Counted from the stretch's first letter, positions 13,084 to 33,039 are shown. The stretch: DNA of 64,000 nucleotides from Candidatus Parcubacteria bacterium (GCA_963766795.1 CAVYBN010000004.1:11179-75178), one strand, 5' to 3'. Notes: generated by a model from the sequence alone, not told the origin. Numbers and translations: made by a program.

Positions 13084-13443
13084 CTATTTAGGCCTTATTC
13101 CGATCGCATAGATGCCGAACTTAGGTATGCGCTCAGCGTATCCTTCCAGATCGTGATAGCTCTTGATGCCGCTCTCGATGTCAAGACCGCTTGAGAGGAC
13201 ATTTTCTACGCCTTCCGTCTCGAGCATGGACCGTACATCGTGATACCAGCGCACTGATAGGACATCACAGATCATCGATTCGCCAGTCGTTTTGTTTGTA
13301 AAGGTGATGGCGTCGCCCGGGGTCATGTGCTCGTAGGTCTTGTCATTTTCGGTCCTAGGCGTACGGCCCTCGATCTTCTTAGTTCCGGCTTTTATCGCCT
13401 TGAACGGCCGGTCGTTCAGATTCAGATTATAATTTGCGGTCAT
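13084..13443 (-). CDS. ASCH-domain protein
   Basis: 119 aa with FKAIKAGTKKIEGR ... PGDAITF, typical of the ASCH / PUA-like fold. Confidence 0.6.
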   Translation of the reverse strand: MTANYNLNLNDRPFKAIKAGTKKIEGRTPRTENDKTYEHMTPGDAITFTNKTTGESMICDVLSVRWYHDVRSMLETEGVENVLSSGLDIESGIKSYHDLEGYAERIPKFGIYAIGIRPK

Positions 13444-15347: not shown

Positions 15348-15447
15348 AAGTATCCTTTTGTTAAAGAACTACGACAGGTACTGCCGACACACGAGTGCAG
15401 GCAGTAGTCTATCGCCAACCAGAGTTGGGATAGCTGTGAGCCGGTTC

Positions 15448-16530
15448 TCACCAATGGAATTCAGTCCTCCTTTTTCCCAATTCGCCGAGAAAGTCCTGCA
15501 GTGCCTGATAGAATGTGAGACACGAATCAATGCTGATATTCTCATTATCGCCGTGTATGTCTCCGCCAGTGGGCTTGATCATCAGTATCGGGATATCGAG
15601 GTCGGCAAAGTGACGCGCATCCGAAGCGCCATATGTCCCTTTTATCTGGATCTTTTTCCCGACGCTTTTTTCGAAGCATTTGATGAACATCTTGACTACA
15701 GGTTCATTGATATCAACCGAGGTCGGACTGCCGATTGAGTGTGTCGATATCTTGAGCGAAGAGTCGATCTTCCTGGCTAAAGCTGATACCTCGTCGCGAA
15801 TCGCCTTGAATGTAGTCGTCTCCGGGAATCTGAAATCTAGGATCGCGTATGCTTCAGGGCATACCTGATTGGCAGAAATGCCGCCTTGGAGCTTCCCGAT
15901 ATTGACCGTTGTCTTCCAAGATTCTCTTCGATTGTTTTGTTTATATCTCTTAAGCACCGCGCCGCACAGAGCGATTATCGGTTCGAGAGCGTTCTTGCCG
16001 TCCCATATCCTGGACGAGTGAGCCGGCGTGCCAGTCGCATCTATACGCAACGCACATACGCCTTTAGATCTATTTACGAATATGAGATCGTCTCCGCCAT
16101 CCGGCACGATCAGGACTTTAGGCCTTAGCTTGTATTGTTTAGCCAGATAAGCGGCTCCTTCGAATCCCCCTGTCTCTTCATCCGTGGTCACGATAAAGGC
16201 GAATGAGATGTCCGATTTTCTTTCAATGAGCTCATTCAACAGCGCATATCCCATGGGAATGGAGAATTTCATATCGCTTACGCCTCGCCCGTAGGCGATT
16301 CCCTTTTTGATAGTCATCTTGAATTGGGCGGGCTTTCCAGCCACGACATCCGCGTGTACTAGAAAACACACATCCGGATCGCGCGTATCTATATTCGAAG
16401 CAATAAAAGATTCCGCATTGCCGTTCTTGATTCTCTTTACGATCGCCTTCTTGCTTATCTTTGACTCGATGAAATCAAGCGCTTTCCTGTTCTGATCGAT
16501 GTCAGATCGTGAGCGTCTTGAATGATACAA
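15448..16530 (-). CDS. M20-family metallopeptidase (ArgE/DapE/ACY1-like)
   Basis: HADVV, GRGVSDMK and TTDEETGG motifs. Confidence 0.75.
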   Translation of the reverse strand: MYHSRRSRSDIDQNRKALDFIESKISKKAIVKRIKNGNAESFIASNIDTRDPDVCFLVHADVVAGKPAQFKMTIKKGIAYGRGVSDMKFSIPMGYALLNELIERKSDISFAFIVTTDEETGGFEGAAYLAKQYKLRPKVLIVPDGGDDLIFVNRSKGVCALRIDATGTPAHSSRIWDGKNALEPIIALCGAVLKRYKQNNRRESWKTTVNIGKLQGGISANQVCPEAYAILDFRFPETTTFKAIRDEVSALARKIDSSLKISTHSIGSPTSVDINEPVVKMFIKCFEKSVGKKIQIKGTYGASDARHFADLDIPILMIKPTGGDIHGDNENISIDSCLTFYQALQDFLGELGKRRTEFHW

Positions 16531-16898
16531 GCCTTGATAGGTCTTCTGTGAATTGTTCTTTAGTTAGATTTTTCATGGTAAGTGATTAGTTAGTTAAAAC
16601 AAAAACACCCTCTTTTACGAAGGGTGTTTTGTCTCTAAATGAAGCTTTTGCTTGATTAGTATGAGACATGCCAAGAACCCCCTCCGTGCGAAAGGCGGTT
16701 ATGATGCCAGTTATTGACCTGAATGGCTGTCTTTTTCATGTATGTGCTATGGTAGCAAACTGCGTATTTGGATGCAAGCGCACGCCATCTGCAAACACTA
16801 AAATCCTATGAACAAACTTGCTCTTATCCACTTGGCTTATAGATATAGCCGACTTTAGGTAGCGTATACACTTACACATGGATAACTGAACCCCATTT

Positions 16899-16907
16899 TG
16901 ATATAAT
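16899..16907 (+). promoter_or_regulatory. Extended -10 promoter (TGaTATAAT) placed for a leaderless maf mRNA
   Basis: TATAAT lies at 16902-16907 and the ATG at 16914. Confidence 0.45.
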
Positions 16908-16913
16908 CGTCGC

Positions 16914-17489
16914 ATGAGAAAAATCATCCTCGCCTCTAGTTCGCCACGCAGGAGGGAAATTTTGTCAAAGTTGGGATTTCCATTCGAGGTGAAGACAAGC
17001 AACTACAAAGAAGACATGGGCCTTCCTCTTCCCCCATCTGAACTTGCCAAATTCCTTTCGGCTGGTAAGGCGCTATCTGTATCAAATGAAAACCCGGGGT
17101 CTCTCGTAATCGCAGCTGACACATTCGTGATGCACCAAGGCACTTTACTTGGTAAACCAAAGACAGAACGGGACGCAATCGCCATGCTCAAAATGTTGAG
17201 CGGCAAAGAGAATGACATTGTGACAGGAGTCACGATCATAGATGGCCTAAGCGGTAACAAATCATCTTTCCATGAGATTACCAAGGTATTTATGAGGGAC
17301 ATCACAGAACAGGAGATTCATGCGTATGTCAGAACCGGCGAACCACTCGATAAGGCTGGCGCATATGCCCTACAGGAACTCGGCGCGATATTCATACAAA
17401 GGATCGAGGGCGATTTCTTTAATGCGATGGGCCTACCACTTGCCAGGCTAGCGCGTGAGTTGGAAGGGTTTGGAATCAAGATTTTATAA
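16914..17489 (+). CDS. maf: Maf-like nucleoside-triphosphate pyrophosphatase
   Basis: MRKIILASSSPRRREIL ... AGAYALQE. Confidence 0.9.
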   Translation: MRKIILASSSPRRREILSKLGFPFEVKTSNYKEDMGLPLPPSELAKFLSAGKALSVSNENPGSLVIAADTFVMHQGTLLGKPKTERDAIAMLKMLSGKENDIVTGVTIIDGLSGNKSSFHEITKVFMRDITEQEIHAYVRTGEPLDKAGAYALQELGAIFIQRIEGDFFNAMGLPLARLARELEGFGIKIL

Positions 17490-17500
17490 ATAGGATCTTT

Positions 17501-17971
17501 TTATTCTATATACGCGACAGTTTTATTTTTTATAGCATCCAAGCATGCGGGTATGCTTTTCTGCAAACTTGTAGATAAGATCGGCATGGCTTTTTCTGGA
17601 GAAGTAAAAACATATTCTTTCAGCTCGTCTGTTTGTAGCTTTATCTGGACGATTTGCTTATCAGTGAGAGTGCCGCCGAAATAGACAAATTTGAGCGAGT
17701 CAGTAAAAACTACTTTTCTTGTTCCATAATATATACCGACCAATTGTAATTCCGTGGCATCAAGACCGATCTCTTCTTTTGTTTCTCGGATAGCGCAGTG
17801 GAGAGGAGATTCATTGTCCTCGGTGGCTCCCCCGGGAACAAGCCATCCGTCTTTATAATCAGGTTTTAAGATAAGCAATTCTCCTTTTGTGTTAAAAAAC
17901 AAGACTGCTGTGCCAACCTGCTTCTTAGGAAGTCTTAGGGCATATTCCTCGTCGGTGAATTTCTTTACCAT
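17501..17971 (-). CDS. NUDIX hydrolase
   Basis: Nudix box GGATEDNESPLHCAIRETKEEIGL. Confidence 0.85.
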   Translation of the reverse strand: MVKKFTDEEYALRLPKKQVGTAVLFFNTKGELLILKPDYKDGWLVPGGATEDNESPLHCAIRETKEEIGLDATELQLVGIYYGTRKVVFTDSLKFVYFGGTLTDKQIVQIKLQTDELKEYVFTSPEKAMPILSTSLQKSIPACLDAIKNKTVAYIE

Positions 17972-18181
17972 TTTTTTATCTTATCACCCTTTGTTATTCT
18001 ACGGAATAAGAGCCATCGCAACATCCTAGGAAGATTCCGTGTAATATTTATATAAACTACTTGCCCCCCTGTGCACAAAATCCCTAAAAATAGGTCTTAA
18101 GTTGATCATCCCGCGTATTCCGGCGTTCTGCACATAAAAAGCGCGGGAATGACCCCGCGCTTGAACTGGCAAATACCCGCC

Positions 18182-19219
18182 TTAGAATTCTGCGAACACT
18201 TTCTTGGATCGCGAGTCGATTCTGACCATGCCGCCATAAGGTAAAGGGATCTGTGGTTCGGTGTGACCAAAGTCCATGTTTTGCAGGATCGGAGCAGTCT
18301 TGTTATACATGCGGATGATCTGGATGGTCGTCTCGCGTTGCTCCTTGCGATACTCCTTTCGTTCGTCCGGATTCTTCTGTTTGTCGTATTCCCACGATTT
18401 CGGCCTGCCGACCAGCACGGCTTTCACGCGTTCCAAGATACCCCTCTCTCCGAGAGCGCGATACACTCTGGACACATAGCTTGCCGGTGATATTTCTTCG
18501 CACGTTTCCGTGAATAGGACGATGTCTTCAAATTCGCTCAATTCAGGGATGCGCGAGCCGTGTCGAAGCATTTCGTCAATGGATTCGAGACAACCTCCCC
18601 ATGTTCTTCCTACGACACGACCTTCCCCATCCCAGAACCAACCGTCATTCTTCTCGTACGCGAGTTCCTTATCCATGTTTGATGGATCATTCCAATCGAG
18701 TCCGATGTCGTTGAACATCTCACTCGAGGTGAGCTCGACTTCGCCAGCTTCGAAAAGCGCCTTCTTGATATACCCAACGGTGAACGGATCCATGTGCCCA
18801 TTCAAGGCAAATTGAGTGTGCAGGGAGGCGCCATAATACGACGGTATGCCCGCAAGCCACAGGAAATTCGCGAAGTGAGTATTGTCGCTGTATCCGAAGA
18901 ATGGTTTCGGGTGTGCTTTGAATGGCGCGATCGGCAGATTTTTGACGTATGTGACCTGATCATCGCCGCCGATGGATGTGATCACGGCCCTTATGGAATG
19001 ATCTTCGAATGCGCGAATTAGGTCGGCAGACCTTTCCTCCTTGCTCGCCCCGAGCTTCTTCGTCGTCGGGAATTCAACCGGCTCAAGGCCGAAGATATCC
19101 CGCAGACGCGTCAGACCGAGTTCATACATATGCGGCCATTGTCCAGGAGCCGCGAATGACGGTGAAAGTATCGCCACCTTATCTCCCGCTTTAAGTTTGT
19201 TTAATTTGGTAAAGTTCAT
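18182..19219 (-). CDS. LD-carboxypeptidase / MccF-like S66 peptidase
   Basis: LKAGDKVAILSPS ... RAVITSIGGDD ... FGHTEPQ. Confidence 0.8.
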   Translation of the reverse strand: MNFTKLNKLKAGDKVAILSPSFAAPGQWPHMYELGLTRLRDIFGLEPVEFPTTKKLGASKEERSADLIRAFEDHSIRAVITSIGGDDQVTYVKNLPIAPFKAHPKPFFGYSDNTHFANFLWLAGIPSYYGASLHTQFALNGHMDPFTVGYIKKALFEAGEVELTSSEMFNDIGLDWNDPSNMDKELAYEKNDGWFWDGEGRVVGRTWGGCLESIDEMLRHGSRIPELSEFEDIVLFTETCEEISPASYVSRVYRALGERGILERVKAVLVGRPKSWEYDKQKNPDERKEYRKEQRETTIQIIRMYNKTAPILQNMDFGHTEPQIPLPYGGMVRIDSRSKKVFAEF

Positions 19220-19261
19220 AATATTAATATTACCATAATAAAAATATGATTATCTGTCAAC

Positions 19262-19400
19262 ACTCCGGGATCGAAGTGCTACCGATATGCTGGATATCGA
19301 GAAGATATGAGCCGAAGATCTCTCTTATCAGCCGGGCTTCATTCTCATATAGATCTTTCCATTCGTCTGAATGCGCCACCAATAGGGTATTTTTAATCAT
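19262..19400 (-). pseudogene. Truncated 5' fragment of a GrpB-family gene
   Basis: The minus strand reads MIKNTLLVAHSDEWKDLYENEARLIREIFGSYLLDIQHIGSTSIPG and then degenerates. Confidence 0.55.
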
Positions 19401-19401
19401 G
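19359..19401. repeat. Direct repeat, left copy (43 bp), bounding the AT-rich island
   Basis: CCATTCGTCTGAATGCGCCACCAATAGGGTATTTTTAATCATG matches 24463-24505 at 40 of 43 positions. Confidence 0.9.
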
Positions 19402-19460
19402 AGATGATATCATTTTTTATAAACATTTTTTATTCCCAGTCTTAATTTATTTAATAGCAT

Positions 19461-20555
19461 TCATTGTTTTTGCTTGAAATAAGAATACGGAATAGCCTCT
19501 CTTCCCAACTTTTTAATTATTCTATTTATTGAAACATATGATTGCGAAGCCAAAGTAATAAACTGGTTATCAATAAAGAAAACCTTTACACAAGAAAAAA
19601 ATTTTGACAAAACAAACTCCTGGTAATACCATGGCCACCTTTTTAAGCTCCTCATATCTCCCATTAAAATATGCTGATTAAAAAGCGCCTCGGGCATTGA
19701 CGATTGGATAAGCAAAATTCCATTTTTTCCTAGACTTTTCTTTAATTCGGGTCCTTTATATTTGATAAATGGTGGTTGCGCCCCATAAAAAACACCTACA
19801 CTAATTAAACTTACATTATCAGGAAAACTCATTTTTTTACAATCCTGAAAATTGAAAAAAACTTCAATCTTGCTTTTTTTCGCTATTTTTCTTAAATAAG
19901 TATTTAAATGCAATTTAAGATCCTGACTTAATTCGTTTACTATAACCTTTTTGGGGCTGTAATTTTTTAAAACAAACGCACTTAACTCTCCAGTCCCTGA
20001 CCCTATGTCAATAAAACAGTTAATTTTTTTTAAGGTGTCACAGGATGCCCTGAGAACCTTCAGCATGCTTTTTTCTGGACCAATAAACATACCCCCTCCT
20101 TCCTTTAGAGCAAATTTAACATCAAATTCTTTCACCATCTCTTTATAAAAACTCGAGTCAGTTTTTTCGATATCAAGTATCTCCATGCCTAATGGATTTC
20201 TTTTATCTTTTTTATATTTTGTATGATTGACTTTTTCTTTATTATCATCAACATGTAACAATGGAATAAAGCCAACGGCTAGATCTACAAATAATTTCAA
20301 TCCAGACTTTGTTAAACGATCTTTCCAGTCACTTCTTATTTTCCTGTATCTTGGATAAATTTCCCTTGAAAAGCTTCCTCTTCCAAGTATATTTTTATTT
20401 TGAAAAATTATATAATATGTGACACAAGGTATTTTATTTTTTTGTGATGTGTATGTCTGGATATTTACACACTTTGAATAAAGTATCTTTCCACCAATAC
20501 TTTCAAAAAATAATTTAGTTATTTTATCTGCTTTTGTTATATTGGCTTGTTTCAT
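19461..20555 (-). CDS. Protein with a C-terminal class I SAM-dependent methyltransferase domain
   Basis: Motif I is FIDIGSGTGELS. The N-terminal region of about 170 aa has no recognisable motif. Confidence 0.55.
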   Translation of the reverse strand: MKQANITKADKITKLFFESIGGKILYSKCVNIQTYTSQKNKIPCVTYYIIFQNKNILGRGSFSREIYPRYRKIRSDWKDRLTKSGLKLFVDLAVGFIPLLHVDDNKEKVNHTKYKKDKRNPLGMEILDIEKTDSSFYKEMVKEFDVKFALKEGGGMFIGPEKSMLKVLRASCDTLKKINCFIDIGSGTGELSAFVLKNYSPKKVIVNELSQDLKLHLNTYLRKIAKKSKIEVFFNFQDCKKMSFPDNVSLISVGVFYGAQPPFIKYKGPELKKSLGKNGILLIQSSMPEALFNQHILMGDMRSLKRWPWYYQEFVLSKFFSCVKVFFIDNQFITLASQSYVSINRIIKKLGREAIPYSYFKQKQ

Positions 20556-20582
20556 AATAATTATTAATAATATCTTATTATA

Positions 20583-21725
20583 TTATTCGATATAATAAGA
20601 ATGGGGTTCATTCCTAACATTTTCTATTCTTACATCCCAGTTTACACCAAGACTTTCTTTTATTTTTTTTATTATTAAATCAATATCATGATAATCCTCA
20701 GATAGGATAGAATACATTGTCGGCCCTAAAGAGCTCATGCCCAAAAATGGCACTTTATCCTTGAAGGAATCATTACCAGACATAAAGCTATTCCTTACTT
20801 CATATCTTTTGGCAGGATTAAGATTATCTTCCATCATCATTAAAGGTGGTTTTTGTTCATCGGAAATCAAAACATACTTACAGTTTCCTAGTCTTTTCCA
20901 TTTAAAAATTAATTGGTTCTTTAATAAATTCATAATCTTCATTAATGCTTTTTTGTTTAATTCTAATTCAATTTTTTTCGTTCCAAATCTAACAATATCA
21001 AGCAAGTTATCAATAAATTCAAAATAGTTTTTATCTAACAATCCTGGGATCAGGCCCATTAGAGTATTTGTGCAGATTGCCTCAACTTCCGAAAGTGGAA
21101 CTGGGGTATTTGATATAAATAAGCTACTTTCATCTATTTCATTATTTAGAGAGATGGAGGTTGGTATTATTAAAAGTATTTTCCATCTTTTGGGAAATTT
21201 ATACCTGCCAATCAACATAGGAGGGCAAGATGCATGATCACCAAATGTTTTCTTTTCCTCATTGGGTCCCATTTTATACCCACCATCGACTATCAAGCCT
21301 CCATACATAAATGAGTAGTAGCCTATTCCAGAAACCCCCGCCCTGTTAGTAACAAAAGCAATTTTCTTTAATGAGATTTTCTTTTTATACAATAAGGCAA
21401 TACCTCTGCCTATACATAGTCCTAATTGGGTTCCGCTACCCAAACCAACATGTGTTTTAAAAGATTTTTTTATGTTTATCTTAACTCCAGAAGATAGTTT
21501 CAAATATTTAATTATACTATTAGCAAAATGGCATGCTTTATTTTGTAAATAATCATTACCTCCAATTACAACTATTTTATCGCAAAATGAAAATTCTATT
21601 TCCAAAAAAAGATTGTCTACTGCCAACCCAACACCACCACAACCCCTACCACCAATTTGATTCATTTTTAAACTATTAAAATGGAGTCTTGCAGATGATC
21701 TAAGAATGACTTTTCTTGAATTCAT
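20583..21725 (-). CDS. Beta-ribofuranosylaminobenzene-5'-phosphate (beta-RFAP) synthase-like GHMP-superfamily protein
   Basis: SSARLHFNSLKMNQIGGRGCGGVGLAV and HVGLGSGTQLGL match the family pattern RLH..l....GR..GG.G and GLGSGTQL. Confidence 0.55.
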   Translation of the reverse strand: MNSRKVILRSSARLHFNSLKMNQIGGRGCGGVGLAVDNLFLEIEFSFCDKIVVIGGNDYLQNKACHFANSIIKYLKLSSGVKINIKKSFKTHVGLGSGTQLGLCIGRGIALLYKKKISLKKIAFVTNRAGVSGIGYYSFMYGGLIVDGGYKMGPNEEKKTFGDHASCPPMLIGRYKFPKRWKILLIIPTSISLNNEIDESSLFISNTPVPLSEVEAICTNTLMGLIPGLLDKNYFEFIDNLLDIVRFGTKKIELELNKKALMKIMNLLKNQLIFKWKRLGNCKYVLISDEQKPPLMMMEDNLNPAKRYEVRNSFMSGNDSFKDKVPFLGMSSLGPTMYSILSEDYHDIDLIIKKIKESLGVNWDVRIENVRNEPHSYYIE

Positions 21726-21751
21726 AATTTTTAATAAGAAATAAGGTAAAT

Positions 21752-22774
21752 TTAAATGTTTTTTACATTCTCATTAACCAATTTTAATGCTTTATTTAAT
21801 TTTAATTTATATTTCTTAGTGTTAAGATTTGGTATCGCCTTCCCGCCCAGAAGCCCACACGCAAGCTTGTCTTCTTTTCCAAACGATATAAATTTTTTAA
21901 CCTCAAACCCTGCTTTTTCAAGTATTTCCTTAAGTTCATTTACCTTTTTTTCGTCAATATATTTATTGGTTCCAATTAGATTACTCGGATTATACTCACA
22001 TAAAATTACTCTGTGATACTTTGGATTCAATAGTTTAATTAAATCTTTTACTTCTTTTTTTGATGTTGTAGTAAATGGACCATCTCCACATAACACAGCT
22101 TTCTCAAACATCAAGAAATTTACAACAACTTTTATTCCCGAAACTTTTGCATATTTCTCCGAAGAAGAAATGACTTCTTTTAGCGGATAAATTTTATTTA
22201 TGGGCATAATCTGATCTCTGTCGTTTACGCTATGGACCGACAGGTGCAAAAGAATCTTGGCATTTCCAAAATCTCCTCTAGCAAAATCGTTTGCAAGCTT
22301 TTTGATAATCTGCGGATTCCCACTTGTAGCAAAAATGTGTCTATAGGTTTCAGATCCCAATTTTTTTACAATTAAATCGGTCCCGACAATCGCTGCTTTA
22401 ACTTTTTCATAAGAAAAGCTAGGTTCCCCTTGGCCCATATAAGCAAACTCCCTTCTATTTTTAGAATAATCAGTAATTTCGTCATCAAGCATCATAAAAA
22501 TATTTTGAAACGCTATTTCCCTACTACTTAAAAGCCTTAAAAAAGGAATGGTGTTTCCTGTAACACAAAATTTACATTGATTGCATTTTTGCGACAAAAT
22601 ACAACCCAAAGACACAGATGTGGTATACGCTCTTATGTTCTCATCAGGTGTCCCCTTGCCTAATTTTGTTCTTCTTAAAAAAGCACCGCTTTCAATATAA
22701 TAATCGTTTTTTCCATCAATTTCCCATGCATATCTAATACCTTCTTCGCCACATTTATTAACATATTTTCCCAC
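21752..22774 (-). CDS. Radical SAM enzyme of the RlmN/Cfr-like methyltransferase architecture
   Basis: The blocks GCILSQKCNQCKFCVTG, YMGQGEPSF, FATSG, LHLSVHSVND, RVILCEYNPS and C-terminal KLACGLLG parallel the RlmN blocks GC..gC.FC.TG, MGMGEP, STsG, LAiSLHA, NLIP.N and ACGQL. Confidence 0.6.
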   Translation of the reverse strand: MGKYVNKCGEEGIRYAWEIDGKNDYYIESGAFLRRTKLGKGTPDENIRAYTTSVSLGCILSQKCNQCKFCVTGNTIPFLRLLSSREIAFQNIFMMLDDEITDYSKNRREFAYMGQGEPSFSYEKVKAAIVGTDLIVKKLGSETYRHIFATSGNPQIIKKLANDFARGDFGNAKILLHLSVHSVNDRDQIMPINKIYPLKEVISSSEKYAKVSGIKVVVNFLMFEKAVLCGDGPFTTTSKKEVKDLIKLLNPKYHRVILCEYNPSNLIGTNKYIDEKKVNELKEILEKAGFEVKKFISFGKEDKLACGLLGGKAIPNLNTKKYKLKLNKALKLVNENVKNI

Positions 22775-22812
22775 AAGTTTTATATTTATTTTTTTTCATA
22801 TTATTGAGGTAA

Positions 22813-23781
22813 TCAATTACTAACAAAAACGCGATTTGCACAGGCCGCCTCACACGGCTGGCATCTATACCAGTACCTATCATTAATAATATTTTTCACC
22901 ATAATTTTTAACTTTGGGTTTTTTCCTTCAATCGATTTTAATACATTAATTATACCGTCCGCAGGGAGTTTTTTGCCTAAATCTGAATTCAATAATTTTT
23001 CTAACCTTAAACGAAATTTCAATGATTGCCCCGGCAAAGAAAGTTTTGTTATAGGAACAGGATGATAGCACCCATACCAAAAACCATCAATTGCCAACAA
23101 CAATGAATCACCAATTAGGCATTTAAAGTTATTCGGTTTTTCTGTAATCGTATACCCTTTTCCTTTAATGGCTGAGGGAAGAAAAACAGCTCTCCCAGTG
23201 GCAGTTACATTTTTTTTCACAATAGTTAACCCCTTATCTTGATATTTTTTCTTAAATTTTTCAAACAATTTATTGTCTCTTCGGTTGGATGTCCACCTAA
23301 TATTTAACTCAAACTTATACTTGTTTTTATGTTCAATAAAATAATCAACTAAATTAGAAGTCCCATTTTTCTTTATAAAAATTTCCTTATATTTTTTTTC
23401 TTTTCTTAGTATTCCTTGGTTATGAAAAATGTCTATGCTTATATCATAAATATCGGCATTTAATAATTTAAATAATAGCGGATTCTCAAGAAAACTTAAG
23501 CCATTTGTATCTATTCTAATTTTAGAAAATTTGTAATTCGCTTTAATTGTTTTAACAATTTTAGCTATATTTGGATGTAAAGTTGGCTCACCACCAGTAA
23601 TTATAAAATTATTAATCTTATTTATTCCTGACTTCTTTAGGTCGGCTAGGGCATCATTAATTTGGGTTAAGGTTAGCTTTTCTTTCTTTTTTGGCGAAGA
23701 ACTGAAAAAACAGTGAGGACAAGATTGATCACATTCTTTTATTATTTGAAAAACTACATGGTTAAATTCTTTTTTTATCAT
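22813..23781 (-). CDS. Radical SAM protein with a C-terminal Cys cluster (possible auxiliary Fe-S / SPASM-twitch-like)
   Basis: Has CDQSCPHC (Cx3Cx2C), GGEPTL and a C-terminal CQPCEAAC. Confidence 0.65.
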   Translation of the reverse strand: MIKKEFNHVVFQIIKECDQSCPHCFFSSSPKKKEKLTLTQINDALADLKKSGINKINNFIITGGEPTLHPNIAKIVKTIKANYKFSKIRIDTNGLSFLENPLLFKLLNADIYDISIDIFHNQGILRKEKKYKEIFIKKNGTSNLVDYFIEHKNKYKFELNIRWTSNRRDNKLFEKFKKKYQDKGLTIVKKNVTATGRAVFLPSAIKGKGYTITEKPNNFKCLIGDSLLLAIDGFWYGCYHPVPITKLSLPGQSLKFRLRLEKLLNSDLGKKLPADGIINVLKSIEGKNPKLKIMVKNIINDRYWYRCQPCEAACANRVFVSN

Positions 23782-24113
23782 TTTATTATTTTACTGCATT
23801 TTGCACAATCTCCTCTGCAAAATACTCTAGTGTTATATTTTTTACATATATGATGAAAGTTCATGTTTTTATTTGAAAAAAATATGTAAAACATTGGACA
23901 TAGTCCCAAATCAACTCCTTTTTGTTGAATTTTATAATCCAAATATAATTGCTCATCTAATGTAAGATCTTGAATCTCAGCCTTTAAAACATTCACTTTA
24001 GAAACAATATCTCTGATTTTTCCAAATCTTTCTGATATTGTTTCCATCTTATTTAAATCTTCAATATACCCACCATCCTTAAAATCTCTAAATATTTCAT
24101 CTACTAAATGCAT
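23778..24113 (-). CDS. 111-aa Cys-rich hypothetical protein, translationally coupled to the radical SAM gene
   Basis: There is a 4-nt stop/start overlap. The C-terminus is CPMF...HHICKKYNTRVFCRGDCAKCSK. Confidence 0.45.
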   Translation of the reverse strand: MHLVDEIFRDFKDGGYIEDLNKMETISERFGKIRDIVSKVNVLKAEIQDLTLDEQLYLDYKIQQKGVDLGLCPMFYIFFSNKNMNFHHICKKYNTRVFCRGDCAKCSKIIK

Positions 24114-24188
24114 ATATTCTTAATATTATTAAATGTTTATAAATTTCGTCAAAATACTTTCTTAGATAATCAAGATAAATATCATTTT

Positions 24189-24413
24189 TTATTTTGATAG
24201 TTTAATGGCTTGAGCCGGGCAACCTTTTACAACTTCTATTATCTTCTTCTGCTGGTTAGCGGATATATTAATCGACGAAGATGTTAAGAGCTTACCTTTT
24301 TGCTTTATTTTTGCTTTAAATTTTTTAATATCAAATTTAAACAGGTTAGGAATACATGTACTGCAATAACCACACCCGGCACATTTTTTTTGGTCAATCG
24401 AAAGATGTGACAT
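24189..24413 (-). CDS. Small single-cluster 4Fe-4S ferredoxin
   Basis: IDQKKCAGCGYCSTCIP ... GCPAQAI. The start is taken at MSHLSI. Confidence 0.65.
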   Translation of the reverse strand: MSHLSIDQKKCAGCGYCSTCIPNLFKFDIKKFKAKIKQKGKLLTSSSINISANQQKKIIEVVKGCPAQAIKLSK

Positions 24414-24462
24414 GAACTGAATTATACATAAAACACTTGAAATATTCAAACTTATAAATAAC

Positions 24463-24505
24463 CCATTCGTCTGAATGCGCTACTAATAGAGTATTTTTAA
24501 TCATG
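24463..24505. repeat. Direct repeat, right copy (43 bp)
   Basis: CCATTCGTCTGAATGCGCTACTAATAGAGTATTTTTAATCATG encodes the same MIKNTLLVAHSDEW. The three differences from the left copy are all synonymous. Confidence 0.9.
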
Positions 24506-24783
24506 GGATAAGTATACCAAATAAAATTTTATCTGCAGACCGCGTAGGATGTTATTCGAACGGGCTTAAGCCATACTCGCATTTGACAAACATGGGCGTG
24601 TCAGTTAGCATATTGACTATGCTTAATAAGCATTTCAGCCTGAATATGTGCTCTAACACCCTCGCTGGGTGGTCGCTTTGCGTTGCCGGCATCGGTTTTT
24701 ATCCGGATACGCAAGAGCTTATATTCAGCCGCGATGCTTCTAACTCATAAGATATAAACATATTTCTTCTGATAATTAAAAGG

Positions 24784-24883: not shown

Positions 24884-26083
24884 ATGAAATCATCGTTAGC
24901 CCGTCGCAATATCGCCCTTTATAAGGTTTTCGTCCTATTCAACGAACCCTTGTTTTGGGGACCGATCCTCATCGCATCACTGCAAAATCTTGGGAAGATG
25001 AAACTGCCGGACATATATTTTATGGAATCAGCGGTCATGGTGATCTGCGTCCTCCTGAATGTCCCACTGGGATCGCTCGCCGATACTATCGGCCGCAAGA
25101 AGACTCTGATCATCGGCAGAATATTCTTGTTCGGCAGTGCCGTGATGTTTGCAACCATGTATTCTCCCCTTACGGCTTGGATCGGCAATATCTTGTGGGC
25201 AATCGGCTATTCGTTCCAATCGGGAGCCGACAAAGCTCTGCTCTACAATGTGCTCAAGTCAGTCGGTCTGGAGGATAGGTATAAGAAGATCGAAGGCTGT
25301 GCCGTTGGCTTGAGATATCTAGTCATTGCCTTCTGTTCTCTACCCGTTGGATATCTCGCGAACATTAATATGAGGATTCCGCTCTACATGTCCGTGCCGT
25401 TCATGCTCATCCCTATGATTGCCGCCTGTTTTCTAACAGAGTCGAAGGTCAGTGAACGGCGATATGCCGTGAAAGATCAACTCCATATATTGGTGGATGG
25501 GATCAAATACGCCTTACGAAAAACGGAGATAAGATGGATCATCGGGCTTTGTGCGCTCATCATGGGCGCGTCGAAGATATGGTTCTTCGCTTATAATCCG
25601 TACTTCGAAAAGGTCGGCATCGACATCAAGTATTATGGTTTCATCTTCTTTCTCTTGAATATCGTCGCCTGGGCATTTAGCCATTACGCCCACAGCATCG
25701 AGAATCGCTTCTCGGAAAGCACTTGCGTAAAAGGCATGATCCTCTGCGTCGGCGTTCCGATATTGCTCATGGGAGCATTGCCGTTCTGGCCGCTAGCGTA
25801 TCTGGTGATCAGCCAGAATGTCGTGCGCGGATTCATGGTGCCGTTCGTCGGAGCATTCACCAATCGCCACATAGAATCGGAAAGCATGCGAGCCACGGTA
25901 TTATCCGTCAGATCTTCGCTTACCGACGCTGTGACGATCATCTCTCTGGCCATGTTCGGGTTGATGGAGAAGCCTTTCGGGCTTCTTCCGTCTCTTATCA
26001 TTCTGGGGACTATCGTTCTCGTGCTTGGCAAATTCAGTTTCACGCGTTATCGGATATTATTTCCGCAAAACGCCGGGGACTGA
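24884..26083 (+). CDS. MFS-type transporter
   Basis: A 399-aa polytopic membrane protein containing a D(T)IGRKK loop motif. Confidence 0.7.
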   Translation: MKSSLARRNIALYKVFVLFNEPLFWGPILIASLQNLGKMKLPDIYFMESAVMVICVLLNVPLGSLADTIGRKKTLIIGRIFLFGSAVMFATMYSPLTAWIGNILWAIGYSFQSGADKALLYNVLKSVGLEDRYKKIEGCAVGLRYLVIAFCSLPVGYLANINMRIPLYMSVPFMLIPMIAACFLTESKVSERRYAVKDQLHILVDGIKYALRKTEIRWIIGLCALIMGASKIWFFAYNPYFEKVGIDIKYYGFIFFLLNIVAWAFSHYAHSIENRFSESTCVKGMILCVGVPILLMGALPFWPLAYLVISQNVVRGFMVPFVGAFTNRHIESESMRATVLSVRSSLTDAVTIISLAMFGLMEKPFGLLPSLIILGTIVLVLGKFSFTRYRILFPQNAGD

Positions 26084-26130: not shown

Positions 26131-26592
26131 TTATACCGTTATGTCCATCTTATAATCATGATCGATCAATATCTTATCGGTGATATCGACTTTTTTGCTC
26201 TTCATGACGGCTTCACGGATCCTCTTGAATGTTTCATCGGGAAGAGGCTCGCAAACGCGCAATCGCTTCATGGCGATCTTCGCCAGCAGATCGTTTCGCG
26301 ATATCCTTCGAACAGAGTTGCAGTCAAAATAGGTCCGTTTGGTGAATTCTTTGTAATCTCGCGGGTAAACATCCACGACCGTTCCGGGTTCATACCGTTT
26401 CATCCGTTCAAGCACTTTGAATTCTTGCGAAGTCGCCCACGTCAAAACCAGGATCTCATCGCTTTTTTTATCCTCGTTTAGCACGACGAAGTAGTGCCGA
26501 GTCTCTTTATCGATGAAGCCGTCGTGGACGAAATACAGCACGCATCCGTGATTGACCGCCGCCGCCAAGCGTATGTCATCCGCGATATCCAC
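26131..26592 (-). CDS. Hypothetical protein; candidate toxin partner of the Panacea-domain antitoxin
   Basis: 153 aa, starting 4 nt downstream of the SocA/Panacea gene, with no recognisable motif. Confidence 0.35.
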   Translation of the reverse strand: MDIADDIRLAAAVNHGCVLYFVHDGFIDKETRHYFVVLNEDKKSDEILVLTWATSQEFKVLERMKRYEPGTVVDVYPRDYKEFTKRTYFDCNSVRRISRNDLLAKIAMKRLRVCEPLPDETFKRIREAVMKSKKVDITDKILIDHDYKMDITV

Positions 26593-26596
26593 GGCA

Positions 26597-27217
26597 TTAA
26601 GCGTTTAGAAGCTCGCCGACTTCGCGATTCTCCTTGAAAATGTCCCTTGAAAACGCAAGTAATCCTGGATCCTCGGTGAATTTGTCTTGTCCGAACTTTT
26701 TCGCCAATTTCTTCGGATTCTCGAAGAAATCTTCGAGTTTCATCTCAAAACGCTTCTCGCTGTCAGTCTTGAATTCGGCTTCGAATCTTTTCCATTCCGG
26801 ATATTCGTGCGTCAATTTTGCCAGTTCAAATCCCTTCTCATCGCCGAAAGAACCGAAGCTGTCCCAAGCGAATTTCAACGCTTCAATGTCGGTTTCCGAG
26901 AAGCAGACCGTATCTATGTTTTTGATCGATTCATAATCGTATTCGCTGACAGGCTTGATGTACCCGCGGCTGTAATTGACTTCCGGAATGTCATTGCTGT
27001 CTTCGGCGATGTCGAGAGTGACCGACGGTATAGGACCGTAAGGAAATGCAAAATAGGAGTCTCCCGTCACTAGGCGGCCGTAGCGGCGCAGATGATAACG
27101 GTCGGCGAAGTAGACCAATTTGACGGCTTTCAACCGGCTGATGCGACCACCCGCCTTTTTCGCGAAGTAGTTGAGCGCTTGCGTGGCCTTTTTATGCTTG
27201 AAATCGAAGGTATTCAT
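26597..27217 (-). CDS. SocA / Panacea (DUF4065) domain antitoxin-like protein
   Basis: LKAVKLVYFADRYHLRRYGRLVTGDSYFAFPYGPIP is the characteristic Panacea core. Confidence 0.7.
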   Translation of the reverse strand: MNTFDFKHKKATQALNYFAKKAGGRISRLKAVKLVYFADRYHLRRYGRLVTGDSYFAFPYGPIPSVTLDIAEDSNDIPEVNYSRGYIKPVSEYDYESIKNIDTVCFSETDIEALKFAWDSFGSFGDEKGFELAKLTHEYPEWKRFEAEFKTDSEKRFEMKLEDFFENPKKLAKKFGQDKFTEDPGLLAFSRDIFKENREVGELLNA

Positions 27218-27295: not shown

Positions 27296-27748
27296 TCAAA
27301 TACTCAGTTCTCTATAAGCACGGAGACAATCTGGCAGATAATCTACTACTTTATAATTACCGACATCTGTAGGCTTGATCCACGCCAAGGCATCATGCTC
27401 TTCTGGATTTATGACCACATTGGTATTAGAAGTCTTTGCGTGAAATATCAAAGTCACAAATTGCATATTCTTTGAGTTATCGATATTTGATCTCTGAAAA
27501 AACAACTTAACATTAGAAATATCCAAACCCGTTTCTTCTTTTATCTCTCGCGTTGCTCCGACCGCTGGATCTTCACCATCTTCTAGTGTTCCTCCAGGCA
27601 AATCCCAATATTCAGGAAGAACGTCATTCCTCTTTGACCTCTTTAGTATTAATACTTCCCCTCGATTATTAGATATGACCGTATGTACGATGAGTCCTTT
27701 TTGCATGATTGATATGCTATCATTTTGATAATCATATGACCATCTCAA
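27296..27748 (-). CDS. NUDIX hydrolase
   Basis: Nudix box GGTLEDGEDPAVGATREIKEETGL. Confidence 0.85.
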   Translation of the reverse strand: MRWSYDYQNDSISIMQKGLIVHTVISNNRGEVLILKRSKRNDVLPEYWDLPGGTLEDGEDPAVGATREIKEETGLDISNVKLFFQRSNIDNSKNMQFVTLIFHAKTSNTNVVINPEEHDALAWIKPTDVGNYKVVDYLPDCLRAYRELSI

Positions 27749-28086
27749 AAGCCACGGAATACCTCGGCAAAATCGTCACGATCACCATCGACCGGCCTTT
27801 ACATTCGAAGCATCCGAAACATGGCTTTGCCTATGAACTGAACTATGGTTTCGTTCCCGGTTCTATGTCTCCTGACGGAGAAGAATTGGACGCGTATGTC
27901 ATTGGTCCCAATGTTCCTCTAGAAACATTCAAAGGTATCTGCATCGCTGTAATCCATAGAACAAATGATGACGATGATAAACTCGTAGTCGTTCCAGAAT
28001 ATGTAAAGATAACTGACGATGAGATACGGTCTGCGACTCACTTCCAAGAACAATTCTTCAAATCTGAGATAATCAGAGAAAGCTGA
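27735..28086 (+). CDS. Small inorganic-pyrophosphatase-like protein
   Basis: ITIDRPLHSKHPKHGFAYELNYGFVPG...DGEELDAYV. The start is taken at MTISKATEY. Confidence 0.5.
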
Positions 28087-28552
28087 GTGCCCTTTCCATA
28101 ATCCTCTCGCCCACCTCACCCCAATCGAAATATTTTTTGTAATCCGCTGGATCAATCAATTTGATCTCCGTTACATCTCCATCCGGATCCGATACAAACG
28201 GTCCGTACGGTTCAACGATGCAAACTGACCGAGTCTGCCGTACTATTCGATCTGGTTCGTAGATATCCTGATAACCAATATACTTCTGGTTCAAAACTTT
28301 CATGTTTGTCTCTTCCTTAACTTCACGGATTACTGCTTCCTCATAGGTTTCTCCCGTTTCGATACCCCCGCCCGGTGGAGCCCAATATCCTTTTTCGGCG
28401 GCGTATACGACTACAAGTTTGCCACCGCAGAAGCAGAAGGCGTGAACAGCTTGGAGAATTTTATCATCGAGATCTTTTAAAGGATCATCTTCACGGTAAA
28501 TAAGATCAAGTTTTTGACCGGAGCGATTTGTTAGAGAAGATTTGATTTCCAT
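28073..28552 (-). CDS. NUDIX hydrolase
   Basis: Nudix box PGGGIETGETYEEAVIREVKEETNM. Confidence 0.85.
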   Translation of the reverse strand: MEIKSSLTNRSGQKLDLIYREDDPLKDLDDKILQAVHAFCFCGGKLVVVYAAEKGYWAPPGGGIETGETYEEAVIREVKEETNMKVLNQKYIGYQDIYEPDRIVRQTRSVCIVEPYGPFVSDPDGDVTEIKLIDPADYKKYFDWGEVGERIMERALSFL

Positions 28553-28694: not shown

Positions 28695-30044
28695 TTATCG
28701 TACCCTCCTCGACGACGAACCGCTTATGAGCAGAATGTTCGCTTTGCCGTTACGGATATCCTTGAAGACGGCTTCTTCGTCATATGAGCCGTATTTGTTG
28801 TCAGATTTGATCACGAATGTGTCCTTTGTCTTGCTTGGCATAAAACGCCGAGCCCAGCGAAGAGGCTTATCATTCTTGGCAGTGAAACCAGCTAGCGTCT
28901 GTCCGGCGCGAACAACGATCTCGTCGCCCCAATTATCACGATATATGCCTTCGTATTTCTTGAACGGCACTGTTTTGACTGTCTGGCCGTTATTGTTGAG
29001 GATCTTTCTAGCCGCATCGAGTATGCCGAAAGCGATGCTTGACGGATTGATTCCCAAAGAGTTCGCATAGACCATGACGCCGATGTCCGTTTTAATGTCC
29101 AAGACAGTCCTGGTCAAGAATCCATCGAACCCTCCGCCATGACCTATCGTTTTCGAACCGTCCGCATAATCGATGTCTAGTCCCAACCCATATTCGTCAT
29201 TGTCGCCAGTTTTTCCGTGAGGTCTGGACATTTCCTTCCTGGATTCCTTGTGAAGGATGCGGCTTGAAGAAGCTATTGGCGATATCGCCGCAATAAATTT
29301 GGTCATGTCCGAAAGATTGGAAATGAAACCGGCGGCCGGGGCGTATGCCTTCGTGACATAGTGCCCGAATATCTTTCGTTTTTCGTCAGGAATAACCGGT
29401 CCATAACCCGTGGCGATATGCGCGATGCCGGGGTGATAATCGACATATGTGTTTTTCATGCCAAGCGGTTTCAGTATGTTCGCGCGGACATAATCGGCAT
29501 ATGGCATGTCCGAAGCTTTCTCAATGATCGGGCCGAGAAGCGAGTATCCGTAATTCGTGTATTTGAAATCGGTCAGGTTCTCGATGACGAGCGATTTGGA
29601 CGAGAATGACTTCTTCAGGTCTTTCGGGAAATCGCCTGTCTCCCATTGCGGTGTATCGCCGTCGCGGAAGATGCCGGCCGTATGTGACAGAAGTTGGCGA
29701 ATGGTTATGTATTTCGCGTCGCTTTTGGCCGTCTTGGCTTTGAACCATGGAATATAGTCGGCAACCTTATCATCTAGGCGGAGCTTGCCAACTTCGACAA
29801 GTTGCAGGATCGAAACCGCAGTGAACATCTTCGAGTGCGAGGCGATTCGATAGAGCGTCTTATCATCGGTTTTAACATTCTTCTTCAAATCGGCAAAGCC
29901 GAACCCTTTGGCGTAAAGAAGTTTACCTTTGTGAGTTATACCGATAGATATGCCTGGATTGCAATCATACTTGATCTTGAACGGCATCCAGATATCCACG
30001 AGATGGCCAGTTTGCTTAATGGCTTCCTTTTGGGTGATTTTCAT
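28695..30044 (-). CDS. Serine hydrolase of the beta-lactamase (class C / DD-peptidase-like) family
   Basis: Has the SxxK motif YRIASHSKMFTA and is 449 aa. Confidence 0.75.
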   Translation of the reverse strand: MKITQKEAIKQTGHLVDIWMPFKIKYDCNPGISIGITHKGKLLYAKGFGFADLKKNVKTDDKTLYRIASHSKMFTAVSILQLVEVGKLRLDDKVADYIPWFKAKTAKSDAKYITIRQLLSHTAGIFRDGDTPQWETGDFPKDLKKSFSSKSLVIENLTDFKYTNYGYSLLGPIIEKASDMPYADYVRANILKPLGMKNTYVDYHPGIAHIATGYGPVIPDEKRKIFGHYVTKAYAPAAGFISNLSDMTKFIAAISPIASSSRILHKESRKEMSRPHGKTGDNDEYGLGLDIDYADGSKTIGHGGGFDGFLTRTVLDIKTDIGVMVYANSLGINPSSIAFGILDAARKILNNNGQTVKTVPFKKYEGIYRDNWGDEIVVRAGQTLAGFTAKNDKPLRWARRFMPSKTKDTFVIKSDNKYGSYDEEAVFKDIRNGKANILLISGSSSRRVR

Positions 30045-30133
30045 GACGGTAATGATGCGCTAAAAATGTAGGAAAATCAAGCGCACTGGTATATTTTCAT
30101 AATGCGGATTACGAATAACTACCAATCAGAATT

Positions 30134-30841
30134 TCAACCGTCTATTTCCGCGATCAAACCCTTATGGTCAGAAAGATATTCTTCTACCATCTCAAGGCGT
30201 GCGAATGTTAGATTGTCGGGTATCATTATGTAGTCCAAACACCAGTTGTCCTTTGGGTATGAGATATAAGGCTTGTAATCAAAAGATAATTTATAGCCAA
30301 TCAGAGCATCAAGATATCTTGGTAGATCATGCAGATTGAAATCACCGGCCATAATCCTTCTTTCTCCCCGTGAATGAATGAAATCCAGAAATTCTGTTAA
30401 CTCAGCTTTGGCGGACCCCTCACTATTGGTAAAATGTATATTGGCAAAATTATATACTTTCTGTCCTATTCTCACGTCAAAGCAGAGGATCGATCTCGGC
30501 TCCGATCCATTCGGGGTTAGATAATACTCGAATGAATTTACAACAGGATGTCTTGAAATAATCGCCATCCCATGTTGGATAGTTTTCTTTAATTTTTGGC
30601 CTCTTTGAGATTCTTTGGGGTAGATCGTAGAGTGTATAGAATATTCATATTCTGGCAGAATATTCTTTATAATCTCGACTTGCGAGAAAGGAGATATCGT
30701 AGTATCTATTTGCACTTCCTGCAAGAAGATCACATCCGGTTTTTTGGTTTTGATGATTTTCTCGAGATTAGACAACCTTGAGTCAAAATCATAATATCTC
30801 CATAGGTTTAGAGTGAAGATCGATATCATATGTTTAAGCAA
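30134..30841 (-). CDS. Endonuclease/exonuclease/phosphatase (EEP) family protein
   Basis: TLNLW ... DVIFLQEV ... AGDFN ... SDHKG. Confidence 0.8.
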   Translation of the reverse strand: MLKHMISIFTLNLWRYYDFDSRLSNLEKIIKTKKPDVIFLQEVQIDTTISPFSQVEIIKNILPEYEYSIHSTIYPKESQRGQKLKKTIQHGMAIISRHPVVNSFEYYLTPNGSEPRSILCFDVRIGQKVYNFANIHFTNSEGSAKAELTEFLDFIHSRGERRIMAGDFNLHDLPRYLDALIGYKLSFDYKPYISYPKDNWCLDYIMIPDNLTFARLEMVEEYLSDHKGLIAEIDG

Positions 30842-32210: not shown

Positions 32211-32914
32211 ATCAATTCATTAACGCGTTTTGAAAAAAATATGATGTACATCTCGATTTCCGGTCGTCTTATATGTTCCAGACTGATTAGGTTACTGATG
32301 ATATTAGTCTCATTGATGTCTAGCTCTTGCTGAAACCTGTCTAGGAACAAATTTACGACCTGTCTATTATTCAGCTCAGCTATATTTTTGTAATCAATGG
32401 CGCCTTCAATGATGAGAATATCCTTCATTATCCTTATAAAATATTTTTTATAAGTTTTTAAGTCATTTGAAAATACATAGTTTCTCCTTAAAAGCCAGAT
32501 GTAATATCTCATCTTCTCTATCACTGAGGCGTTCATTTGTTCTCGTTTTAATTTGGAAACAATGTCTAGATAGATATTCTTTCCAATTAACACATTGGAT
32601 GAACATAGAACATGGATAAAGTATATTCCTTGATTTCCATTTTGAAAGATAATACTATCTTTATAGATAATCTCATCTATTGAATGAAAGCTAAGGTCGA
32701 TCTTATTAGAGAAGCTGAATATATCTTTTATTGCTCTTAAGGTTTCCACATCAATTTTTTCTAGAACAAGATGGAAATCTAGATCTGACTGGTCGTTAAA
32801 ATCCTCTTTTTGTTTTACTGATCCATAATTAAGCAAGCAGACTATATTATCCCTAATAGGCATTTGCTCGCATAATATTTTAACTTGATTTATTATATTG
32901 TATTCAGGATTCAT
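32195..32914 (-). CDS. Small nucleotidyltransferase (MNT/KNTase-like)
   Basis: LLNYGSVKQKEDFNDQSDLDFHLVL is a GS...DxD motif. Confidence 0.6.
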   Translation of the reverse strand: MNPEYNIINQVKILCEQMPIRDNIVCLLNYGSVKQKEDFNDQSDLDFHLVLEKIDVETLRAIKDIFSFSNKIDLSFHSIDEIIYKDSIIFQNGNQGIYFIHVLCSSNVLIGKNIYLDIVSKLKREQMNASVIEKMRYYIWLLRRNYVFSNDLKTYKKYFIRIMKDILIIEGAIDYKNIAELNNRQVVNLFLDRFQQELDINETNIISNLISLEHIRRPEIEMYIIFFSKRVNELIWKNL

Positions 32915-33039
32915 GAGATGTGTAACCTTAAGTTACAATAAATTTATAGTTAGCTTTTGTGTCCATGGTATCACTCATCTTATGAAAGTAAAGGGGTATT
33001 CTTTCCAAAACTGTGGATAACTATGATTAGCATATATCT

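Follow-up and report, generated by a model that had tools for sequence, protein, structure and literature searches.

An AT-rich island in a 64,000-nucleotide stretch of Candidatus Parcubacteria bacterium DNA (GCA_963766795.1, CAVYBN010000004.1:11179-75178; the whole stretch is referred to as the window) lies between two short direct repeats of the start of a grpB gene, carries a six-gene operon, and encodes no recombinase. On balance, and with modest confidence, we read it as a horizontally acquired island that entered by reciprocal recombination between a grpB-like patch borne by the incoming element and the chromosomal grpB start. All genes of the operon are on the minus strand and code for a ferredoxin, a Cys-rich protein (p111), two radical S-adenosylmethionine (radical-SAM) proteins (rSAM322 and rSAM340), a protein with the GHMP-kinase fold (GHMP380), and a weakly methyltransferase-like protein (MT364). 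The coordinates of all features are given in Table 1.

The island is compositionally foreign. Its G+C content is 0.300 against 0.456 and 0.464 in the 3-kb flanks, and the G+C content at third codon positions (GC3) is 0.18-0.29 in the island genes against 0.50-0.63 in most neighboring genes. In tetranucleotide usage, the island is an outlier with a distance of 0.066, whereas no other 5-kb segment of the window exceeds 0.031. Profiles of G+C, codon usage, and tetranucleotides had been proposed as a check in the original prediction.

The repeats that bracket this DNA are sharp-edged. As predicted, two 43-mers (19359-19401 and 24463-24505) differ at three positions; with these positions left degenerate, no further copy exists elsewhere in the window and none was found in 100 shuffles. 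In a local alignment, the repeat grows to 47 nt (19359-19405 and 24463-24509, 43/47 identical) and gains a fourth mismatch, which lies at position -2 relative to the ATG and thus outside the 43-mer. Past the repeat edges, no similarity was significant when compared with shuffles (p = 0.08 downstream and p = 0.25 upstream). Read on the minus strand, both copies start from an ATG and encode the same peptide, MIKNTLLVAHSDEW. Translation also bears out that the coding mismatches (left/right ACC/ACT, TTG/TTA, and GTG/GTA at codons 5, 7, and 8) are synonymous third-position changes; the probability that three of three changes are synonymous is 0.006-0.033, depending on the mutation model. The claim that the island-side copy always carries the A/T variant holds for the three coding sites, where the A/T variant is in the right copy; at position -2, beyond the 43-mer to which the claim refers, it is in the left copy. 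The codons of the right copy are those preferred in the island (fractions for ACT:ACC, TTA:TTG, and GTA:GTG of 0.61, 0.65, and 0.75 in the island versus 0.43, 0.20, and 0.32 in the host), and the codons of the left copy are those preferred in the host, with likelihood ratios of ∼10 for each of the two assignments. A 5+5 palindrome within the repeat (CATTCAGACGAATG) was set aside, as by a rough estimate ∼0.35 such palindromes are expected per 47 nt by chance.

All four mismatches fit a single crossover between position -2 and codon 5; one crossover predicts that the mismatch at -2 runs in the opposite direction, as is seen. The incoming element would have been circular at the time of recombination and would have carried a 47-bp patch homologous to the grpB start, written in the codons of AT-rich DNA. 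A single reciprocal exchange between this patch and its chromosomal counterpart, within 15 identical bases (CATGATTAAAAATAC), would insert the element and leave two hybrid repeats. The right repeat would then combine the host promoter with element codons 5-14, followed by the promoter and operon of the element, and the left repeat would combine upstream DNA of the element with host codons, followed by the rest of grpB. The island does not encode the recombining enzyme, so that the exchange would be the work either of the host's own recombination, homologous or by short homology, or of an integrase supplied in trans. The same layout would also be expected from an integrase that acts on a phage-type attachment site (attP) mimicking a gene start. 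The integration of an AT-rich element at the grpB start, as put forward in the original prediction, is supported by foreign composition, mobile cargo, sharp edges, and codon preference; its second part, a grpB patch of the element's own from an AT-rich donor, is the best-fitting account of the repeats rather than a proven one.

Exchange with diverged DNA does occur in this population, which bears on the choice between these enzymes. A contig from the European Nucleotide Archive (ENA; L002) is ∼0.1% divergent from the window over 16200-20910 and ∼14% divergent at 15445-16195, with 105 of the 112 mismatches packed into 750 nt of the M20 peptidase gene (15448-16530). This tract looks like an imported homologous-recombination tract. 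A precedent for mobility of a recombinase-less island is the H47 genomic island (H47 GI) of Escherichia coli, whose repeats are extensive and imperfect and whose excision depends neither on RecA nor on the known site-specific recombinases (PMC5426353).

Scans with Pfam, NCBIfam, PADLOC, and PHROGs revealed no integrase or transposase among the six island proteins, and none was found in the larger open reading frames (ORFs) scanned within ∼10 kb around the island. A tRNA is not present inside the island either, in agreement with the original prediction. The hallmarks of a transposon are lacking: there is no transposase, there are no terminal inverted repeats, no termini are conserved between the lineages that carry related cassettes (see below), and the repeats do not have the fixed length of a target duplication but measure 20, 47, 143, and 168 nt in different lineages. 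Similarly, no dif-like 28-bp sites, as expected for integrative mobile elements exploiting Xer (IMEX), are shared by all loci; the repeats differ between lineages and derive from grpB, from tRNA-Gly, and from sequence that precedes a gene here called X. With integrase-type islands, the island shares the deviant composition and the target-derived flanking repeats, and it lacks an integrase of its own. With the H47 GI type and the cis-mobilizable elements (CIMEs), it shares imperfect repeats at both ends and the lack of an internal recombinase.

A different origin of the repeats would be that the insertion duplicated 47 bp of the grpB start (or used a pre-existing duplication) and that the differences are later, mostly AT-biased transitions in the upstream copy. 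The three coding differences are GC-to-AT transitions in a right copy that is truncated and presumably non-functional, under a transition-only model three synonymous changes out of three still have P ∼ 0.03, and no donor with a grpB-linked cassette was found. However, at the fourth mismatch it is the left copy that has the A/T variant, the changes agree with the codon preference of the island, and a long decay should have blurred the sharp repeat edges. Together with these edges, the variable repeat lengths, the unconserved termini, and the missing recombinase argue against both a transposon and simple decay. We regard this origin, the main alternative, as unlikely.

In the original prediction, the right copy was thought to run into junk. 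Instead, the stretch behind it holds a promoter-like sequence (TTGAAT-17-TATAAT) and overlaps the start of the ferredoxin gene. Because of this match just ahead of the ferredoxin ATG, the island probably brings its own promoter. The short ORF that begins in the right copy shows no similarity to grpB in the 22 codons that follow codon 14; a tblastn match of 43% over 46 amino acids became insignificant once the 14 shared codons were removed. Junction regions often hold extended -10-like sequences (ATTTTATGCTAYAAT, TTTTTATGATATCAT, and TGGTATACT) a few nucleotides before start codons (window 19402-19425 and 24510-24535, and L077:7300-7330, L083:7413-7440, and L089:7955-7985 and 13215-13245 among the related contigs), a hint that transcripts in these genomes may be leaderless or have short leaders. 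No RNA family was found at the junctions in an Rfam scan of the island with its flanks and of the L077 and L083 contigs.

The left copy, by contrast, continues into a truncated grpB remnant, as had been claimed. Judged from its profile match, the 47-codon ORF is a fragment of a GrpB gene (Pfam GrpB, PF04229, E = 6e-9), but the match covers profile positions 4-39 of 159 only, and the 47 codons compare with a full-length GrpB of 181 amino acids in a related metagenome-assembled genome (MAG; L003). The composition of the remnant is host-like (G+C 0.44, GC3 0.50). The point of truncation, codon 47, is precisely the site of the -35 hexamer in the promoter-like sequence of the neighboring LD-carboxypeptidase gene. 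The contig L161 (90% nucleotide identity) aligns to the window from 19260 to ∼18136 only, that is, from this hexamer to just past the LD-carboxypeptidase gene, and upstream of the shared span it carries the N terminus of an IS481/IS630-like transposase on the opposite strand. Since the codon-47 point coincides with an independent synteny breakpoint in L161, the truncation of grpB is probably an event separate from the entry of the island and would have taken place at the LD-carboxypeptidase promoter. The span common to both is L161:396-1520, and its downstream neighbor there is a 193-amino acid helix-turn-helix protein, unlike in the window. Single transcription units seem to be shuffled between these genomes.

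Relatives of the operon occur in other members of the candidate phyla radiation (CPR, or Patescibacteria). Homologues of GHMP380 share 59-71% identity in a handful of metagenome contigs and 42-55% in further Patescibacteria. Fetched contigs and a metagenome scan at the Joint Genome Institute (JGI) revealed the five-gene core from p111 to MT364 in at least 5 other lineages that are roughly equidistant from each other, with 58-78% amino acid identity to the window copy and 60-85% among the lineages. In these genomes, the core lies in other contexts (L077, L080-L085, L083, L086, and L165), and where the flanks suffice for comparison it again forms a low-GC island (0.31-0.34 versus 0.38-0.45). By this recurrence at different sites, the cargo is demonstrably mobile among CPR bacteria.

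Three of these contexts show how the cassette is bounded. The island of L080 to L085 lies within a tRNA array, where it occupies the 3' end of a tRNA-Gly(GCC) gene; 20 nt of the tRNA end recur without mismatch at its far side, and behind the tRNA stands a terminator that belongs to the island. In L080, the cassette is also enclosed by a 215-nt inverted repeat (95%; 6014-6228 and 11304-11518) that comprises the 3' part of a small gene and a terminator, suggesting more than one integration or rearrangement at this site; an inverted fragment resembling the tRNA end (11519-11540) follows it. Direct repeats that take in a promoter and leader region flank the islands of L077 (168 nt, 87%) and L083 (143 nt, 80%). 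In a control with random 5-kb pseudo-islands in comparable CPR contigs, only 1 of 167 segments had a flanking repeat at E ≤ 1e-5. The two copies in L083 are 97% identical in promoter and leader and ∼65% identical in the first 24 codons, with conservative replacements. Directly downstream of the cassette in L077, L083, and L165 lies gene X (∼270 amino acids, with an N-terminal EIYTPL motif; L077:12529-13374, L083:12366-13181, and L165:5306-5398; 53% identity between L077 and L083). Because it is also present without the cassette, as three tandem paralogues that adjoin a histidine kinase gene in L064, gene X is a host gene. A 17-nt repeat in L089 was judged to be a promoter consensus and was not counted, and terminal overlaps of 5-kb contigs were rejected as evidence for circles (the 27-nt overlap of L078 lies inside the flanking repeat and is expected from a k = 31 assembler).

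More distant versions of the cluster (L162-L168) start with a gene for a deoxynucleoside/thymidylate-kinase-like protein and carry a gene for 119 amino acids between the GHMP-fold gene and the last gene. In the AT-rich genomes L162 and L163, the cluster has native composition and no repeats, which makes AT-rich Patescibacteria plausible donors of the islands. In L166 and L167, the cluster is lower in G+C than its surroundings.

These relatives also bear on a second, equally doubtful alternative, that the island is the remnant or satellite of an integrase-type element similar to CIMEs, with the repeats as attachment sites (attL and attR) and the integrase lost or supplied elsewhere by a helper. 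In L080, the tRNA-Gly 3' end, the exact repeat, and the terminator that follows the restored tRNA together form an arrangement that textbooks give for integrase-mediated insertion. Gene-integrating elements commonly carry a replacement gene end with silent differences, as phage 21 and e14 do in icd, and a gene with an rve domain lies 0.8 kb upstream of one distant cassette. On the other hand, no integrase stands beside the cassette in any lineage with sequence, and none (nor a transposase) is found among the annotated genes of L077, L080, and L083. Repeated independent loss of the integrase that leaves the same five genes flush to both repeats would be unlikely, and the repeat sequences, which differ by lineage, would demand several different integrases.

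The junctions of the island are supported by other assemblies. Over 9 kb that include both junctions, L001, a Logan contig of a different run, matches the window at 99.99% identity; the left junction is also spanned by L002 and by a JGI contig (L169), and the same gene order is found in one more ENA contig. Because the junctions recur in independent assemblies from different samples and assemblers, the island is not a chimera, the artifact that the original prediction had considered. It is very improbable that no insertion took place, the DNA between tandem grpB paralogues having been replaced, the operon being native but odd, or the assembly being chimeric. Gene X does show that tandem paralogues exist in a CPR genome, and other low-GC stretches of the window lack repeats. 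However, the AT-rich DNA stops within 8 nt of the left ATG and immediately behind codon 14 on the right, for which paralogue replacement would need a coincidence. In addition, its composition is extremely deviant, other genomes carry the cassette elsewhere, and the reproduced junctions largely refute a chimera.

Several observations weigh against entry by recombination at the grpB start. Neither an empty site (an intact grpB between the MFS transporter and LD-carboxypeptidase genes) nor a circular junction was recovered, and no copy of the cassette that adjoins a grpB gene was found in a donor or relative. A word-indexed homologue search with the 47-amino acid remnant returned no close GrpB, and because of this result the N terminus of the remnant is, within the reach of that search, not a widely shared sequence. 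The four mismatches are few, and GC-to-AT transitions in a dead copy would give them by chance at a few per cent. The AT shift of the upstream copy across loci (13:6, 12:11, and 3:1) is insignificant. The repeats in L077 and L083 could mark a preferred insertion site or, equally, paralogous or duplicated 5' regulatory regions, and they are not independent of each other, as both islands precede gene X. No repeat was detected in the 250-580 nt of flank available for L165 and L086. Finally, the function of the operon is read from distant family resemblances only.

With respect to the empty site, L161 carries an LD-carboxypeptidase with 93% amino acid identity and no island beside the gene, but grpB is absent there too, so that L161 does not count as a clean empty site. 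P0262, an LD-carboxypeptidase with 94% identity to that of the window, is encoded on a 22,533-nt JGI contig. This contig may be an empty-site relative, because the JGI scan for the radical-SAM gene of the cassette gave no window-like copy.

Table 1. Features of the island and its borders (window coordinates)
Feature	Position	Strand	Remarks
LD-carboxypeptidase gene (host flank)	18182..19219	-	
LD-carboxypeptidase promoter-like TTGACA-17-TATGGT	19232..19260	-	first base pairs are the stop codon of the grpB remnant
Truncated grpB remnant	19257..19400	-	47 codons and stop, ∼1/4 of GrpB
Left repeat copy (downstream)	19359..19405	-	same 14 grpB codons as right copy; T for C at -2
AT-rich island body between repeats	19406..24462	.	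5.06 kb, G+C 0.300
MT364, 364 amino acids, weak class-I methyltransferase-like C-terminal half	19461..20555	-	Pfam Methyltransf_25 E = 0.004, below cut-off
GHMP380, beta-RFAP synthase/ForT family, 380 amino acids	20583..21725	-	GHMP-kinase fold, ribosylation with PRPP in the family; TIGR00144; PDB ForT 2e-12
rSAM340, distant RlmN/Cfr-like radical-SAM, 340 amino acids	21752..22774	-	NCBIfam RlmN/Cfr 1e-19; PDB Cfr 5e-12
rSAM322, radical-SAM, 322 amino acids	22813..23781	-	Pfam Radical_SAM 7.7e-15; YydG/MoaA/viperin-like core
p111, 111-amino acid Cys-rich protein	23778..24113	-	rare family
Ferredoxin, 4Fe-4S, 74 amino acids from ATG (open from TTG 24449)	24189..24413	-	Pfam Fer4_15/Fer4_13; gene call in L001
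Right-copy ORF, 36 codons	24394..24504	-	begins in repeat; overlaps ferredoxin start in another frame
Island promoter-like TTGAAT-17-TATAAT	24421..24449	-	7 nt before ferredoxin ATG; consensus match only
Right repeat copy (upstream in transcription direction)	24463..24509	-	5 nt and grpB codons 1-14, ATG at 24504
MFS transporter (host flank), divergently transcribed	24884..26083	+	

The ferredoxin belongs to the island of this lineage only (tblastn finds it in the window and L001). Among 1.84 billion proteins, only 21 representatives of the p111 family were found, including a fusion of 452 amino acids (L090:9239-10597; P0243) in which p111 is joined to the RlmN/Cfr-like radical-SAM protein. 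Because the two are fused in some genomes, p111 and the Cfr-like protein probably act together. In L096, two p111 paralogues (3117-3461 and 7907-8236) flank a reduced cluster. An AlphaFold2 model of p111 built without an alignment (pLDDT 48) was unusable and gave no confident structure.

For rSAM322, all NCBIfam matches are below cut-off, PADLOC assigns pVip at 3.7e-12, and the PDB matches are YydG and viperins. The similarity to YydG extends across most of the length, whereas that to viperins and MoaA is confined to the N-terminal core. We rejected rSAM322 as a pVip defense protein: viperin_w_prok scores 39.9 bits against a cut-off of 180, and the viperin matches in PADLOC and PDB cover only the N-terminal radical-SAM core. 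Likewise, rSAM340 was rejected as an RlmN/Cfr methylase and is a distant relative only, scoring 70.6 bits against a cut-off of 290 and possessing a CX8CX2C instead of a CX3CX2C motif. In the family alignment (A1), of the cluster cysteines C58, C67, and C70 alone are invariant, which defines the CX8CX2C spacing. The cysteine C306 of a C-terminal KLACGLLGG motif is also invariant. Distant rSAM340 homologues in gut metagenomes have other surroundings (polysaccharide loci, an HD phosphohydrolase) and are uninformative on function.

GHMP380 exceeds the cut-off of the TIGR00144 subfamily (186.4 bits versus 113.5) and stays below that of the equivalog NF040726 (201.6 bits versus 328), so that the same reaction is not implied. 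Its nearest solved relatives, the ForT-type C-glycoside synthases, use phosphoribosyl pyrophosphate (PRPP) (PMC8183095). MT364 has weak BioC/UbiE-like matches in NCBIfam and no PDB relative by sequence. Taken together, the cargo families and the kinase-like gene of the distant versions suggest an operon for the synthesis of a small molecule that is ribosylated and modified, or of a nucleotide analogue. PADLOC, PHROGs, and related scans matched the cargo to no known pathway or defense system, and the PHROGs matches of the island proteins are generic radical-SAM and ferredoxin families only. A search of viral contigs and of phage and plasmid records with the most conserved cassette protein found distant RlmN/Cfr genes only and no vector.

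Outside the island, the best matches of the LD-carboxypeptidase (up to 68%) are in Paceibacteria, Azambacteria, Vogelbacteria, and other Patescibacteria MAGs, which places the host in the Patescibacteria, and close relatives are scarce (proteins at 93-94% identity only). E. coli genomes gave no match, so that an enterobacterial host is rejected, and the exact sequence of the MFS protein has no database entry. The neighborhood is rich in accessory genes. It contains a SocA/Panacea-domain protein with a 153-amino acid partner (26131-27217), a beta-lactamase-fold protein, three NUDIX paralogues (17501-17971, 27296-27748, and 28073-28552), a RhuM-family protein (34535-35581), and, in another lower-GC patch, an MvdD-like ATP-grasp protein (8461-9426). 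A second low-GC stretch (∼30000-33200, G+C 0.29-0.39) encodes an Exo_endo_phos protein (30134-30841), a 458-amino acid protein with a nucleotidyltransferase motif (30834-32210), and a 239-amino acid protein (32195-32914). Because this stretch has no flanking direct repeat, the pattern of island and repeats is not general in this genome.

CPR bacteria have tiny genomes with few recognizable mobile-element genes and are otherwise known for minimal biosynthesis; to our knowledge, the route by which DNA enters these genomes is poorly understood. Up to 13% of CPR genome length has been attributed to horizontal transfer (PMC12455944). Together with the relatives at tRNA-Gly and gene X, the window locus is a concrete, testable case of an operon that moves between CPR genomes without a recombinase of its own. 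The cargo, with its ForT-like PRPP enzyme, two unusual radical-SAM proteins, and rare Cys-rich partner, is a conserved and undescribed set that could represent a new pathway to a small molecule or nucleotide analogue. If the island were an ordinary decayed integrative element, the finding would be routine. A broader scheme, which we put forward as speculation and think rather improbable as a whole, is that recombinase-less cassettes of ∼5 kb spread among Patescibacteria, each taking its patch from the previous site and re-entering new genomes by recombination at conserved gene starts or tRNA ends, perhaps once DNA has been taken up. In this scheme, the cargo would encode a pathway, so far undescribed, to a modified (C-)ribonucleotide-like compound, possibly antiviral or antagonistic.

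As a kind of feature, an integrase-less island is known from H47 GI and the CIMEs; the novelty lies in the group of hosts, in a target at the 5' end of a gene whose copies differ by silent, AT-shifted changes, and in the cargo. Like H47 GI, the window island is small, serves one biosynthetic function, is flanked by direct repeats that are extensive and imperfect, and encodes no recombinase; mobility of this type would therefore have to come from host functions. H47 GI differs in its size (13 kb), in its enterobacterial host, and in that its excision as a circle was shown experimentally, whereas the window island is known from its DNA sequence. The window island differs further in its CPR host and in its repeat, which stems from the 5' end of a protein gene. 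The CIMEs and other cargo-only satellites similarly carry cargo between att-like repeats without genes for recombination or transfer, but neither a parent element (integrative and conjugative or integrative and mobilizable) nor tandem accretion was seen at the window island.

The icd prophages phage 21 and e14 and the tRNA-targeting islands likewise show direct repeats of the target end, silent differences, and foreign DNA, and L080 indeed uses a tRNA-Gly 3' end. Unlike these integrase-type elements, the window island has no integrase, duplicates the 5' instead of the 3' end, and lies in a target that is non-functional and truncated at codon 47. Concerning the cargo, the pathways with ForT or beta-ribofuranosylaminobenzene 5'-phosphate (beta-RFAP) synthase (for the C-nucleotides formycin and pyrazofurin and for methanopterin) and the viperin-type systems share with the operon a ForT-like PRPP enzyme and a radical-SAM N terminus of the viperin/MoaA kind; however, the matches are distant and below equivalog cut-offs, and the other pathway genes are absent. 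The layout itself is exactly that of Campbell-type integration of a circle through a short homologous segment, which predicts an insert between two hybrid copies of a patch, with mismatches on either side of one crossover. Campbell-type insertion-duplication is known mainly from plasmids and laboratory constructs, and we know of no natural cassette family described as spreading in this way among CPR bacteria.

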